A DNA stretch of 64,000 nucleotides. Source: Mytilus edulis (taxonomy: Eukaryota). The DNA is taken from NCBI RefSeq assembly GCF_963676685.1, contig NC_092355.1, positions 81,282,001 through 81,346,000 on the forward strand. The letters are read 5' to 3'. The notes beneath the pieces are model-generated. The model made no database searches and was not told the origin of the DNA. It saw nothing but the letters and a program-made list of their open reading frames with translations. Each line of letters opens with the position of its first letter. The first letter of the stretch is position 1. Shown here in pieces: positions 12,801 to 63,136 of this stretch. The position numbers were made by a program, and so were the translations under genes.

Positions 12801-13799
12801 TTTAAATTCTCCCTCGCCCTGCTCGTCCGAATTTAAAGCATTTAATTTCTAATTCAATAGGCTATAAACAAGACAAACACAGATATAGGATTAGTTGCTC
12901 GCAGTAACATCTTATTTTCTCTTGCGATACAATATTTTATTTTACTGAATTGTACATATTTCTTCAATCGAAACATTATATAAACACATGACATATAACA
13001 TTGTTCCTCTTTCGCATCGTTTCTTTTCCCCCGGCTAATGCCTCCAACGCCTGTACGTACAATAAACATAGCAGCAACTGCACATATACCTATGTGACCA
13101 ACTTCAATCCGACGTAACTGCGAGCACCTTCGATACTAATACATTTAAATCCCAAAGTTTATATAGTACCTTTAAACCCCACCCATAAAAACCGCCAAAA
13201 CTTTCCTCGTGCCTCCTGCACCTAACATCAAACTTATAAATAGTACATACTGTTACAAAACCAGTATCCGAACTAGTTATACTAGTTCCCATCTGTAAAT
13301 ATTAACTACAAATAGCAAACGGGAAAAACCCTATTTCAAACGAAATAAAATACATTTAAATTCTCCCTCGCCCTGCTCGTCCGAATTTAAAGCATTTAAT
13401 TTCTAATTCAATAGGCTATAAACAAGACAAACACAGATATAGGATTAGTTGCTCGCAGTAACATCGAAACAAAGGAAATGAAACAGTTCAGAATAAGATG
13501 CTGATATAAAAAGTCTTTGAGATATTGCTAATTGAAGATAAATCTTCAACCACTAAACTGGACCAATATCAGTTTCAAGTCAATAATCGGAACGTCAAAT
13601 ACGACATATTGAACCGGAAGCTTCCGCAATAGATGGTTATACAGACAAATGTTTTGCAAATCTTGAATCGATGGATAATTTCTCAAACTGTTTTCTTTGA
13701 TTCTGTAAATAGAAGAACACAATCAAAACTTCATACATACATGTACTTGTATCTTAATCAGATAAACATTAAACTCTATAGATATATACATATTTCCTA

Positions 13800-14050
13800 T
13801 CTATATACATCAACTTCTAATCATAGTATGTGATTCTTTATGTTACACACTGCAACATAGCTCATGAAAGTCTAAACATATATGCATCTCAGATCTACAT
13901 ACATCAACTTCTAATCACACTGTGATCCTTTATGTCACACTGCGCAACATAGCTCATGAAAATCTAAACATATATGCATCTCAGATCTACATACATCAAC
14001 TTCATATCACACTGTGTGATCCTATTGTTACATTCATAAAAATCTAAACA
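13800..14050 (+). repeat. ~92-bp tandem repeat (about 2.5-3 degenerate copies) inside the insertion
   Basis: acatcaactt...tgtgat...ctcatgaaa.tctaaacatatatgcatctcagatctacat recurs at ~13807, 13901, 13993. Confidence 0.8.
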
Positions 14051-14472
14051 TATATATATATATATATATCTATTATATCAACAACAACAAAAAACAAAGT
14101 CTACAGCTATGTCTGAAGCTCTGACTTTGTACAAGGTTTCTTATTATCTTTGTTACATTTTTATTATCGATTTTAAATTAAAAAGTTTTCCACTCAATAT
14201 GTTATGTACTCATGTGTACGGACTGTAAAATATTACTGCTTACCGTTTTAAAATCTCTCCAAGTTGAACTCTTGGTACTGTCCGATTTATCTCACATAAA
14301 AACGGGCTACTTTTTATACCTACACCTGCATATTTGTGGCATCCGGGAAATAATTAGCACATACATAAGGTCTCCAATATAGTACTAAAACTCTGATCGT
14401 TTTATAGTAAATGCGACCTGCTGATAAAATAAAATCAAAATTGTGGTATTTAATGAAAAAACATATAAAATT

Positions 14473-15746
14473 GATGATTATTACAATCTCATCTTCAAAT
14501 CAATTGTATACATATATTTAATTATGTACAAAAGTTAATGCCTTCATATTTAATCTTTTGTTTTCTGTATATTAATTTAACTATACAACATCCCATGGTG
14601 CATTGTGCAACCAATCACATCGCTCCCAGCGACAACATTCCATGGTGCACTACACTGTGCAACCAATCACGTCGCAACATTCCATGGTGCACTACACTGT
14701 GCAACCAATCACATCGCTCCCAGCGACAACATTCCATGGTGCACTACACTGTGCAACCAATCACATCGCTCCCAGCGACAATATTCCATGGTGCACTACA
14801 CTGTGCAACCAATCACATCGCTCCCAGCGATCTAATAAAATAAATTTCATACATACCATTTCAAACTCATCTGTAACTCGTATCACTCTTCGTGACAAAA
14901 TCATCTCACTGCGAGAAGATTTAAACATATGTTGTTTCCATGTCTCAAATCTAGTACAAGTCTTACAAATTCTTTACCTGAACTTTGTACTGAAACAGTA
15001 ATCAGATTTTATACAAAAGGTGGACACTGTAATATTTAGTGAGCATTTCATCTATCAACTTTTAAATAAAAGTTGCATGCTTAAAAGCTGATTTGTTTTT
15101 CATATTAATGAACTCAACATGGTTCACATGATGATTATTACAAGTCTCATCTTAAAATCAATTGTATACATATATTTAATAATGTACAAAAAGTTAATGC
15201 CTTCATATTTAATCTTTTGTTTTCTGTATATTAATTAAACTATACAACATCCCATGGTGCATTGTACAACCAATCACATCGCTCCCAGCGACAACATTCC
15301 ATGGTGCACTACACTGTGCAACCAATCACATCGCTCCCAGCGACAACATTCCATGGTGCACTACACTGTGCAACCAATCACATCGCTCCCAGCGACAATA
15401 TTCCATGGTGCACTACACTGTGCAACCAATCACATCGCTCCCAGCGATCTAATAAAATAAATTTCATACATACCATTTCAAACTCATCTGTAACTCGTAT
15501 CACTCTCCGTGACAAAATCATCTCACTGCGAGAAGATTTAAACATATGTTGTTTCCATGTCTCAAATCTAGTACAAGTCTTACAAATTCTTTACCTGAAC
15601 TTTGTACTGAAACAGTAATCAGATTTATACAAAAGGTGGACACTGCAATATTTAGTGAGCATTTCATCTATCAACTTTTAAATAAAAGTTGCATGCTTAA
15701 AAGCTGATTTGTTTTTCATATTAATGAACTCAACATGGTTCACATG
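14473..15746 (+). repeat. ~620-660-bp tandem duplication inside the insertion, each half with a 52-bp minisatellite (5 and 4 copies)
   Basis: Blocks start gatgattattacaa at ~14473 and ~15130. The unit ccatggtgcactacactgtgcaaccaatcacatcgctcccagcgacaacatt is at 14593-14830 and 15252-15447. Confidence 0.92.
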
Positions 15747-16457
15747 GTTCAGTATTGAATGGAAATATATAACCAAATTCTATAGTATTTTAAAATAAAA
15801 TCATAAACCTGTAAAACGGTTTTTTAAAAAACAAGAACACAAATATATTGATTTTCGCTTCTAACTTAATAATTCGTTCCAGGCATGATTTCAGAATGTA
15901 AATAAAGTCAACATTATACTCAACTCCGTCATGTGAAAACATGTTCCTCTTTCGCATCGTTTCTTTTCCCCCGGCTAATGCCTCCAACGCCTGTACGTAC
16001 AATAAACATAGCAGCAACTGCACATATACCTATGTGACCAACTTCAATCCGACGTAACTGCGAGCACCTTCGATACTAATACATTTAAATCCCAAAGTTT
16101 ATATAGTACCTTTAAACCCCACCCATAAAAACCGCCAAAACTTTCCTCGTGCCTCCTGCACCTAACATCAAACTTATAAATAGTACATACTGTTACAAAA
16201 CCAGTATCCGAACTAGTTATACTAGTTCCCATCTGTAAATATTAACTACAAATAGCAAACGGGAAAAACCCTATTTCAAACGAAATAAAATACATTTACC
16301 GAGATCGCGTAATGGATTTTACAAGTTATTTTTAAGGGTGTCTTCGTCGAGGTCCGCGTTCGTCTGTTATAAATAAACGAGGCCTGGAATGGCGTTATTT
16401 TCAAATCGTTATTCGTAGTATAAACTTCGTAAAGGATAATATTTTGAATCATTCAAA

Positions 16458-17033
16458 ATGGCAGACGCAACAGCAGCACCAGCAGTAGCACCAGCTAAAT
16501 CACCAAAGAAAAAGGCAGCAGCCAAGCCAAAGAAGCCTTCCGCACATCCTAAATACAGCGAGATGATTGGAAAAGCCATCGCCGCTTTGAAAGAACGTGG
16601 AGGTTCTTCAAGGCAAGCAATTCTGAAGTACATCATGGCCAACTTCAACGTCGGAAAAGATGCCAAGTCAGTAAATGCTCATTTAAAACTTGCACTCAGA
16701 GCCGGAGTTAAGAACAACAGTTTGAAGCAGTCCAAGGGAACTGGAGCATCCGGATCTTTCAGAATTGGAGAGGCTAAAGTAGTTAAAAAGAAGCCAGCAA
16801 AGGCAAAGAAAGCAGCCAAACCTAAGGCCGCCAAGCCGAAGAAGGCAAAGAGCACACCCAAGAAGAAGAAGCCAGCAGCAAAGAAACCAGCTGGAGAAAA
16901 AAAGGCTGCCAAACCAAAGGCAAAAAAACCAGCAGCAAAGAAAGCAGCCAAGCCAAAGAAGCCAGCAGCCAAGTCACCAGCAAAAAAGAAGGCAGCCAAA
17001 CCAAAAGCCAAGAAGACACCAAAGAAGAAGTAA
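16458..17033 (+). CDS. H1: Histone H1, copy 4 (promoter interrupted by a 3.5-kb insertion)
   Basis: Identical 191-aa ORF; only 159 bp of native upstream sequence remain contiguous. Confidence 0.98.
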   Translation: MADATAAPAVAPAKSPKKKAAAKPKKPSAHPKYSEMIGKAIAALKERGGSSRQAILKYIMANFNVGKDAKSVNAHLKLALRAGVKNNSLKQSKGTGASGSFRIGEAKVVKKKPAKAKKAAKPKAAKPKKAKSTPKKKKPAAKKPAGEKKAAKPKAKKPAAKKAAKPKKPAAKSPAKKKAAKPKAKKTPKKK

Positions 17034-46172: not shown

Positions 46173-46230
46173 CTGTTTTCTTATTTTTTTGTTAATGGTA
46201 TGGTCCTGGGAACAGTATATCTAACGGGAA

Positions 46231-47610
46231 ATGAATCTGATAGGCTTTTCTTTTCAGTATAAAATTAATGAAAACTACAGGCCAGTCTCATTGACATCAG
46301 TACCATGTAAACTTCTTGAGCACATCATATGCCGTCATATACTCAAACATCTGGAAAAGCATAATGTATTAACATCACTAAACCACGGCTTTAGATCTGG
46401 ATATTCCTGTGAGACCCAACTTGCCATTACAATCCATGATATGCTACAATCCTACGATAAAGGAAACCAAGTAGATATTGCGATTCTGGATTTTTCAAAA
46501 GCGTTCGACACAGTACCTCATGATAGACTCTTGCACAAAATAGACCAATATGGAATTAGAGGAAATATCCACAAATGGCTAACTTCATTCCTAACCGAAA
46601 GAAAAATGCGAGTACAACTTGATGGAGAAAACTCGAGCAATGCTTCAGTTGAATCCGGAGTCCCCCAAGGAACGGTACTAGGACCCATCCTCTTCCTGTG
46701 TCATATAAATGATCTCCCAGATGCAGTAAACTCATCAGTACGACTATTTGCAGACGACTGTTTGCTCTACCGGGAAATCAAAAACCAAAATGACCATAAC
46801 AAACTACAAGAGGATCTCAAATCACTAGAAAAATGGACCGACGACTGGGGTATGCGCTTCAACGCCAAAAAATGTTATATGCTCAGCCTGAAAAGTAAAA
46901 GTCAGCGTTTTTACAACCTTAACAACCACACGCTTGAACAAGTGTCATCCAACCCATACCTAGGACTACAAATACAAGAAGATCTTAAATGGGAAGAACA
47001 AATAACAAATACGTGTAACAAAGCCAGTTCTACCCTAGGCTTCCTTAGAAGGAACCTACAACACTGTCCTATGGAATGCCGTAAAACTGCATATATAGCT
47101 CTCATACGATCAATAATGGAGTATGGATCAATTATTTGGGACCCATATACCCAAAAAGACATCGACAAACTAGAATCCATACAAAAGAGAGGTGCTAGAT
47201 TCATTACCAAAGACTACAAATCAAGAGAGGAAGGATGTATGACAAAAATGCTAAAAGAACTTCAGCTCCCGTCATTACAATCAAGACGCCAACAACAACG
47301 ACTGATCTTCTTTTTCAAAGTGGTTGAGGGGAAGATACCAGCGCTTCCTCCCGACGATTTAATCCAATTTCATAGACCAAAGAGACAAATCAAAGCAACA
47401 ACATATAATAACTTTGTAACAAAAAACATTATAGACCACCAAGTCCGTAACAACAAACGTGCGGTCATAGTTCCAACTAGTAAGACAGAACAGTACAAGA
47501 ACTCTATTTTTGTGCGCACTGCAATAAACTGGAACCATCTGGAAGACTCAGTAGTGTGCGCCACTACTGCCGAGGAGTTTAAATCAGCACTCCTCAGCAA
47601 GCGCGACTAA
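46231..47610 (+). CDS. Reverse transcriptase, C-terminal part of ORF2 of a 5'-truncated CR1/L2-group non-LTR retrotransposon (homology starts ~46270)
   Basis: NYRPVSLTS, HGFRSGYSCETQL, LDFSKAFDTVPH, SGVPQGTVLGP, LFADD, W.MRFNAKKC, YLG and EY...WDP motifs; endonuclease missing; no stops. Confidence 0.93.
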   Translation: MNLIGFSFQYKINENYRPVSLTSVPCKLLEHIICRHILKHLEKHNVLTSLNHGFRSGYSCETQLAITIHDMLQSYDKGNQVDIAILDFSKAFDTVPHDRLLHKIDQYGIRGNIHKWLTSFLTERKMRVQLDGENSSNASVESGVPQGTVLGPILFLCHINDLPDAVNSSVRLFADDCLLYREIKNQNDHNKLQEDLKSLEKWTDDWGMRFNAKKCYMLSLKSKSQRFYNLNNHTLEQVSSNPYLGLQIQEDLKWEEQITNTCNKASSTLGFLRRNLQHCPMECRKTAYIALIRSIMEYGSIIWDPYTQKDIDKLESIQKRGARFITKDYKSREEGCMTKMLKELQLPSLQSRRQQQRLIFFFKVVEGKIPALPPDDLIQFHRPKRQIKATTYNNFVTKNIIDHQVRNNKRAVIVPTSKTEQYKNSIFVRTAINWNHLEDSVVCATTAEEFKSALLSKRD

Positions 47611-61626: not shown

Positions 61627-61781
61627 ATCGTTCTTAATGGAAAAAAAACCATGCTGACTCCTCGATCATAGTTGAATGGTCATTCCACAATTAATGATGA
61701 ACAAGAGACATGTGTTTCCACCACTCCCTTTTTCCCATTAAACATGATAAACCTATTTTAATGATTGCATTGTTTTACTAG

Positions 61782-63136
61782 GTTTTGATGAAAATAGAGA
61801 AGAAAATGTAAAGAAAAAGAAACAATCCTTAAGGTGTGATTATGGTGGATGTGGAAAAGTGTTTACCTTGAATAAATACTTAAAAAGACACTTATTAATA
61901 CATTGTGGAGACAAGCCCTTCGTGTGTGACATGTGTAATAAAAGTTTCACAGTCAAAAGATATCTCAAAAGGCACATGTTAACACACACAGATGATAAGA
62001 GTTACAAGTGTGAAGTGTGTGATAAAAGGTTTAGTAATAAGGACAGTTTAAGACCTCACATGAAGATGCATACTGGTGATAGAGATCACATATGTTATGT
62101 ATGTGGTCAAGGGTTTTATCAGAAACGATATATGTTGAAACACTTTAATCGTACACATACTGGAAATACAACTCAGTGTGACGTGTGTAGTTTGTGGATT
62201 AGGAATGATAGAGTTCAGAAACACACAGAAAATCACCTATGTAAAAATCAGTCCCCTGGGAAACTCAACCTTTCTAGAACTGCATTTGGAAGACCTGTCA
62301 AGTCGAGTTCTTCTAAAGGAGAACAATTGCATGGGAAACAAAATCTTTCTGGATCTGCATTTGGAAGACTTGTCAACTCGAGAACTCCAGAAGGAAAGCA
62401 GTCTGCATCTTCTACAAACATTGAGATCAAGAAGAAGTATTATCAGAATAAATCGGCGTCGAATCCATCTAGTGCGAAAAGTATTTCTTCATTGTCAACA
62501 GGCAGTATAACTGTTGAGAACTTTGATCAAAGTAGTATCAATCTAGATGTCAATGTCACTCGACCAATCGATTCAGGTGTTGCTATTTCAGACATTCCTT
62601 TTACCTCAGACCAGGCTCATCCCTTAAAAATTACTACATCGAAAACCTTAAACACAGTTGCAAAAAATGTCAACTTTGAAGAGGCTGCCGTGATAGCTGT
62701 TAATAAATCTGATACTGAAATGGATATAGAGTCGCAGGAGGCAGTGGAGAACTTGGAGGAGTCTTCTATGAAAGATGTCAACAAATCTGATACTGAAATG
62801 GATATAGAGTCGCAGGAGGCAGTGGAGAACTTGGAGGAGTCTTCTATGATGGGTGTCAACAAATCTGAGACTGAAATGGATTCAGAGTCGAAAGAGGCAG
62901 TTGAGGTATTAGAAAGTCTTTTTGGAGTTTCACACACAGATATTTCTGATTCAGACGTTAACGACTTAGCTGCTGCATCTGGTGATAATAATTCACCTCC
63001 TGAAACAGGAAAATCTGTGGCGTCCATTAAGATAGAACCAGAGTTAGAAACCAGTTATTCAGACGAAGAACATCCACTCTCATGCAGAAAAGATGAAGAT
63101 TTGTCAAGTAAGTTATTTTGTTTAAACACGTCTTGA
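61782..63136 (+). CDS. C2H2 zinc-finger gene, exon with 5 C2H2 fingers and acidic repeats (may end at donor 63107/63108 and continue outside the window)
   Basis: ttactag acceptor in phase with the previous exon. Fingers: CDYGGC..H..H, CDMC, CEVC, CYVC, CDVC, with TGEKP-like linkers. Three 26-aa VNKSDTEMDIESQEAVENLEESSM repeats. Confidence 0.9.

Follow-up and report, generated by a model that had tools for sequence, protein, structure and literature searches.

The element and its insertion site

A stretch of 64,000 nt of the Mytilus edulis genome (NC_092355.1, positions 81,282,001 to 81,346,000), here called the window, contains an insertion in which the predicted 5' end of the RNA is complementary to the edge of another repeat of the same element. 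The locus raises the question of what kind of element this is and what such a pairing could do. Across positions 1-45100, a 3.69-kb unit carrying one histone H1 gene is repeated in tandem about 12 times with near-identical sequence; no core histone ORF was found among the ORFs listed for these units, and the array resembles the solitary H1 clusters of mussels. Two further ORFs, at 46225-47610 and 61751-63136, encode a reverse-transcriptase fragment (RVT_1) and a C2H2 zinc finger.

Comparison with the intact 3.69-kb units revealed that the array is interrupted in one unit, 160 bp 5' of the histone H1 start codon, by a 3,498-bp insertion on the minus strand (12801-16298). The same 4-nt core occurs at either end of the element, in the empty site and at the internal B|A junction. 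On the minus strand, the order is A1-internal-B1-A2-spacer-B2, with the following features:

12801..16298, minus strand: whole element, delimited by array comparison and the shared 4-nt core
15942..16298, minus strand: A1, repeat A at the 5' end, 357 nt, with the same sequence as A2
16098..16105, minus strand: TATA box TATATAAA, placed 31 nt upstream of 16074, the predicted start
16070..16074, minus strand: initiator-like (A)TCG|A motif, with the transcription start predicted at about 16074
16042..16069, minus strand: leader segment, including the 18-mer 16068-16051, with complementarity to B at its 5' edge
13466..15941, minus strand: internal region with pol/YR remnants, 52-bp and 92-bp tandem arrays and a 0.6-kb duplication
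13464..13480, minus strand: 5' edge of B1 with a pyrimidine tract and the second TCG|A, where B1/B2 identity begins
13447..13474, minus strand: B1 partner segment across the B boundary, 25 bp, -34.2 kcal/mol
13355..13465, minus strand: B1, internal copy of B, 111 nt, ending in the conserved recombination-junction motif
13002..13358, minus strand: A2, internal copy of A; its leader copy is 13129-13102
12912..13001, minus strand: spacer, with AATAAA at 12941-12936, 30 nt before B2
12801..12911, minus strand: B2, terminal copy of B, identical to B1; 12911-12893 (18-19 nt) can pair with the leader
16458..17033, plus strand: host histone H1 gene of the interrupted unit, outside the element

The interior consists of decayed, non-coding pol and tyrosine recombinase (YR) remnants, colinear with an autonomous relative (L143). 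Judged from its sequence, the insertion is a non-autonomous PAT-like tyrosine-recombinase retrotransposon without genes of its own.

The same insertion with the same flank was observed in two small contigs, and may either have been duplicated along with the array or assembled repeatedly. The window family has a repeat A that exceeds that of L143 by about 90 nt. In both A copies (15942-16030 and 13002-13090) its end is made of spacer-like sequence followed by a gag remnant, which indicates a two-way movement of sequence between the A positions.

Classification

L143 is 80-90% identical to the window element in A and B, and has genes for a zinc-knuckle Gag, for RT/RNase H/Dam-type methylase and for a YR in sense orientation. 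The methylase gave a Dam match of E=3e-5, below the Pfam cut-off, and 155 bits to a local MT profile. The Gag zinc finger matched zf-CCHC with E=0.0014, just under the cut-off, and those of L062 and L065 were above it. The autonomous relatives carry gag-pol-YR on the strand that has A1 first, in agreement with the minus-strand orientation put forward in the first-pass annotation of this DNA.

In an RT/RH tree of 25 rows, rooted at the midpoint, built without named reference sequences and with L099 dropped, the PAT-like, DIRS1-like and Ngaro groups were clean (support 99/97, 100/99 and 100/100). Under this midpoint root, the PAT-like group was the sister of the DIRS1-like group, apart from Ngaro. 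L099 has no methylase match, its B1 and A2 are non-adjacent, and it shows no pairing; it was left out of the sets. The PAT-like hallmarks found were split direct repeats and a core in common with the B|A junction, with no variable target-site duplication; a methylase, whose absence marks Ngaro, is present in the PAT-like relative L143. By the definitions in the accessible text of PMC4157794, the window family is Pat1-like of the echinoderm form. The accessible parts of PMC4157794, PMC3266345 and PMC7192593 give PAT-like elements the layout seen in the window, A1-B1-A2-B2 with the internal repeats after the YR, whereas the window copy departs from the type in being a decayed, non-autonomous derivative. 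The initial description as a generic split-repeat element was right about the split repeats and has to be narrowed to PAT-like specifically. The pairing is not general in Ngaro of this genome.

Pairing between the leader and the edge of B

The 18-nt complementarity proposed in the first-pass annotation was found in place: 16068-16051 (repeated at 13128-13111) pairs with 12911-12894 (repeated at 13465-13448) by 15 Watson-Crick pairs and one G-U pair of 18. The signals listed around it, TATATAAA at 16105-16098, GC boxes in A, two hairpins and AATAAA/ATTAAA, were likewise located. The first hairpin (13270-13288) keeps its shape in three relatives, as compared by eye, and the second (13081-13096) is absent there. 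The A-versus-B pairing score was equalled in 21 of 2000 dinucleotide shuffles, and an equal score at most 3 nt from the B boundary was reached in 0 of 2000.

The match had been described as ending exactly at the B boundary. This holds for B2; with B1 the duplex continues across the boundary. It is formed by 16069-16042 with 13474-13447, comprises 25 bp at -34.2 kcal/mol (-29.1 for B2) and is about 9 nt longer than the leader:B2 pairing. The fold of the window cassette selects B1:A2, with an overall z of just -1.9, and the minimum-free-energy fold of the predicted 3.2-kb transcript contains both leader:B2 and B1:A2. By sequence, A1 and A2 fit equally as the pairing partner.

Conservation and covariation

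A genome search gave 502 candidates, of which 40 were scored and 30 loci taken, 23 with the full cassette and seven as solo A-spacer-B copies. In a recombinase-family search, 96 of 894 candidates were scored, among them autonomous split-repeat and DIRS1-type elements, and 40 stretches were examined. A junction-pattern search returned 139 matches, including the window family, and 0 in the reversed control; a 9-mer pattern search was dropped as too unspecific. All families in the pairing tests come from one genome.

The main set comprised 20 families and subfamilies with one intact representative each, some of them close relatives. The 32 nt after TCG|A in A were tested, with the best of 1-3 motifs taken per family. 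For the first nine families, the cognate assignment was the best among 362,880 permutations. In 20/20 PAT-like families and subfamilies, the segment after TCG|A outscored every non-overlapping segment of A and spacer. In this set, the energy was -22.7 kcal/mol for cognate and -13.2 kcal/mol for non-cognate pairs (0/100,000 permutations), and the cognate partner was best in 15 of the 20 rows. The bases before the two motifs also covary across the 20 families (permutation p=0.005). In an unanchored test on 12 distinct families, whose repeats are alignable mostly near the junction only, the best segment lay at -9 to +1 from the motif in all 12, and the cognate partner was best in 11. When whole A was aligned locally against whole B with G-U pairs allowed, the alignments ran off into long AT-rich stretches and were of no use for Ngaro (59.6 vs 60.0).

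Covariation, proposed as a check in the first-pass annotation, was observed: the paired sequences differ between families, relatives show compensatory changes (e.g. the window element vs L196, L065 vs L114), and loss without compensation, named there as a refuting outcome, was not seen. In a 21st family, GCG|A stands in place of the motif at both sites and a pairing of 14 bp is retained. L203 was dropped as a counter-example, since this copy has a deletion in B1 and its sister copies retain the pairing. Judged by these comparisons, the pairing of the leader with the start of B is a conserved feature of the PAT-like family as a whole.

Twelve Ngaro families of the same genome, submitted to the same test, showed no general signal (-20.2 vs -18.8, p=0.055); individually, L163, L176 and L181 each show pairing of A with the start of B. 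A metagenome scan yielded 11 loci, none with a full B1-A2-B2 cassette; neither L154 nor L160, both without B2, scored above shuffles (16 and 13 of 40). The junction pattern had 0 matches in viral contigs.

The B boundary and traces of replication

The flank of B1 adds -6.7 kcal/mol to the pairing, compared with -1.6 kcal/mol for the flank of B2, and B1 was better in 19 of the 20 families. Shuffled B1 flanks gave -3.3 kcal/mol, the true flank being better (p=0.0002), and a family's own flank was slightly better than those of other families (p=0.036). In about six of the 20 families, the gain from the B1 flank was no higher than with shuffled sequence.

Identity between B1 and B2 begins at -2 to +1 of TCG|A in 72 of 87 distinct cassettes; in the others it begins at +3 or +5 (five) or at -4 (one), or no usable motif is present (nine). 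In six copies, B2 carries 2-4 additional bases of the B1 flank. In L208, the initial 25 nt of B precede a complete B that begins in the B1 flank, and L105 has a private change at B position 3 in both B1 and B2. The additional flank bases, L208 and the L105 change indicate that B2 is rebuilt from B1, the template's own part of B2 being about 25 nt. The putative role at a priming or strand-transfer boundary, as first suggested, is supported by the start of B1/B2 identity at TCG|A and the shared change in L105.

In L093 and L098, A terminates exactly with the paired segment. This indicates that the segment would be the sole homology available for the jump and must be copied. In L064 (7400-7500), the spacer is gone and A2 runs straight into B2 at TTCG, the end of the paired segment, possibly as the result of a mis-jump by microhomology.

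Predicted transcript

The leader had been assigned a promoter-like position, and TATA-like boxes and the initiator-like motif accord with this. A TATA-like box was found 33-35 nt before the A of TCG|A in 11 of the 20 families, a count made without a control. The (A)TCG|A motif resembles the Drosophila INR1 TCATTCG, as given in the accessible text of PMC1779564. Together, box and motif lead to the predicted start near 16074. AATAAA or ATTAAA occurs within 45 nt before B2 in 19 of the 20 families, again without a control and with a rough chance expectation of about 1 in 6; in the window, AATAAA is located at 12941 (spacer) and ATTAAA at 12846 (B2). Of the listed carriers of the sequence, none was recorded as RNA. 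The 34 RNA-seq reads on the element came from both strands with no start peak, and among the loose ends listed for the contigs of four runs, none had a poly(A) junction.

In 12912-13481 of the window, small RNAs of about 30 nt with 5' U were observed, nearly all from the plus strand, antisense to the predicted transcript (110 reads, three runs, one study). They are piRNA-like.

Across the 20 families, G-U exceeded A-C mismatches by 31:11 (p=0.003; p=0.028 against the non-cognate rate), and in the 12 distinct families the ratio was 15:7 (p=0.13). With fixed windows, the sense strand was more stable in just 11 of the 20 families. The G-U excess weakly favours a role at the RNA level over one at the DNA level.

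Proposed mechanism and alternatives

The reading tentatively preferred here, with a probability of about 0.45, is that, through the leader:B duplex, the transcript docks with its ends on the internal B1-A2 copy, and that this duplex determines the point at which reverse transcriptase switches, so that the ends are rebuilt. The RNA would start at the initiator-like motif, pass the poly(A) signal and end within B2, about 20-30 nt from its start. Because both leader copies can pair with both copies of the B edge, the RNA could alternate between leader:B2 with B1:A2 and leader:B1 with A2:B2. Such alternation would bring the terminal repeats into register with their respective internal twins, with which, as direct repeats, they cannot pair. 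Reverse transcriptase would then copy the upstream part of A and the whole of B from the internal copy and halt at TCG|A, where RNase H cuts or the duplex blocks, fixing the B boundary. The 4-nt core would be where the tyrosine recombinase inserts the closed circle. The duplex would thereby serve as DIRS1's internal complementary region (ICR) does, in an element with a direct internal copy. According to the accessible text of PMC7192593, the ICR of DIRS-1 is required to complete reverse transcription, not to begin it. Docking of this kind does not account for the primer, and two RNA molecules may be needed.

Alternatively, PAT-like elements might self-prime in the manner of Tf1: RNase H would cut the leader within the duplex, the annealed 5' fragment would prime minus-strand DNA at TCG|A, and the cut at the twin motif would give primer and repeat boundary together. 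B2 would then be copied entirely from B1. Three observations are in line with priming: on its outer side the pairing stops at the predicted RNA 5' end, in the families displayed the helix extends inwards as far as B positions 1-3, and the B boundary is sharp with small shifts. In the available parts of the cited papers, the first 11 bases of Tf1 RNA pair with the PBS and are cut by RNase H (PMC7175516), and no primer is known for the group to which the window element belongs (PMC7192593). However, removal of the leader in L093 and L098 would leave the first jump without homology; L208 indicates that the first 25 nt of B2 were copied, contrary to priming on B2; and DIRS-1 without its ICR still produces cDNA, as reported in the accessible text of PMC7192593. 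Self-priming, the main rival of docking, is regarded as rather unlikely. If true, it would mean that a primer had for the first time been identified in a tyrosine-recombinase retrotransposon, and the split direct repeats would conceal a vestigial inverted repeat in common with DIRS1.

A hepadnavirus-like translocation of a capped 5' oligomer was rejected, since the extra bases of L208 match the B1 flank and not the initiator. For Ngaro, tRNA priming was considered because B begins with TGGC, and was rejected because those bases are often missing from B2.

A further proposal, already made in the first-pass annotation, is that the pairing circularises the transcript. The RNA 5' end would pair with the start of B2 in a terminal panhandle, a vestige of the inverted terminal repeats of DIRS1, with a role in stability, packaging, translation or first-strand transfer. 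Part of this stands: the minimum-free-energy fold of the predicted transcript does contain the panhandle with B2 beside B1:A2, a poly(A) signal lies immediately before B2, and the PAT-like and DIRS1-like groups are sisters. Nevertheless, the local fold favours B1, and a panhandle needs neither the family-specific extension into the B1 flank nor the B1 motif. As that extension, seen in 19/20 families, is into the flank of B1 and not of B2, circularisation alone is insufficient. It is improbable as the whole explanation and can coexist with docking on the internal copy.

The duplex might instead act in DNA, where the 3' end of the single-stranded cDNA would snap back on the B1 complement and prime the plus strand, or a B1:A2 stem would mark the cassette for the recombinase or a nuclease. 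The G-U bias is weak within the window's own clade, 2 bp contributed by the A2 flank lie flush with the B1 edge in L093/L107, and DIRS-1 intermediates are single-stranded according to the accessible text of PMC7192593. Against this, the sense strand shows a G-U excess overall, snap-back explains neither the B boundary at TCG|A nor the B1-flank bases in B2, and a local stem need not stop at a promoter motif. A DNA-level role is thus given a low probability. A chance match or functionless relic can practically be dismissed, for although the window match is modest by itself, the pairing occurs in the same place with different sequences in 21 families whose repeats are alignable mostly only at the junction, Ngaro controls lack a general signal, and permutation tests refute chance unless the junction pattern biased the sampling of families.

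Comparison with known elements

TOC1 of Chlamydomonas is gene-less and has the layout A-internal-B-A-spacer-B, internal tandem arrays and solo A-spacer-B copies. The window family is similar to it in layout, arrays and solo copies (7/30 loci), and differs in kingdom and sequence.

In the literature searched, which lies outside the founding kangaroo, Ngaro, PAT and TOC1 papers and supplements, no A-B complementarity was found for PAT-like elements, and among the papers listed for it none linked self-priming to Ngaro. The accessible parts of PMC4157794, PMC3266345 and PMC7192593 contain no mention of A-B complementarity or of a primer for PAT-like elements. The element is of a known kind, and its cis-acting pairing, well supported by the comparisons above, is apparently undescribed. 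The pairing bears on how tyrosine-recombinase retrotransposons start reverse transcription and restore their ends; the accessible text of PMC7192593 gives the primer of DIRS-1 as not determined. A conserved, covarying pairing of 20-30 bp at a fixed position, with a twin motif and aberrant copies in which intermediates are preserved, offers a precise mutable target for distinguishing priming from strand transfer. It also suggests a way in which the direct-repeat (PAT) and inverted-repeat (DIRS1) ends may be variants of one mechanism.

As in the DIRS1 ICR, following the accessible text of PMC7192593, a junction copy lies 3' of the YR and its edge pairs with terminal sequence, which would be required for restoring the ends. 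The ICR, however, is inverted, exact and long and acts on cDNA, whereas the window element has a direct copy and an imperfect helix of 20-30 bp that probably forms in RNA. DIRS1-type inverted terminal repeats and an ICR are absent from the window element and present in the true DIRS1-like copies of the genome. In Tf1/sushi, as covered in the accessible parts of PMC7175516, the RNA 5' end is complementary to a site inside the element where a repeat begins or ends, and the predicted RNA 5' end of the window element would be comparable. Tf1 differs in its exact 11-nt primer beside the 5' LTR and its integrase; in the window element the partner is near the 3' end and cleavage is hypothetical. Ngaro has the same repeat layout (PMC8547959 and PMC4157794, accessible parts); its members in this genome likewise have a motif at the edge of B1, and a C-rich tract follows their A2. 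It differs in having no methylase but a GDSL hydrolase, in forming a separate clade and in lacking a general pairing of A with the start of B.

A CCCACCC-like tract was observed directly after the internal junction copy in 12/12 Ngaro families and in 5/9 PAT-like families plus one sister copy, and after the ICR in 5/5 DIRS1-like elements; it is absent from the window family. This tract may be a signal common to YR retrotransposons. The B1 edges of Ngaro (L163-L181) have a TTTGGC-like motif, and the start of B2 varies within it. Three Ngaro copies (L164, L167 and L174) carry tandem extra A-spacer-B units at the 3' end.
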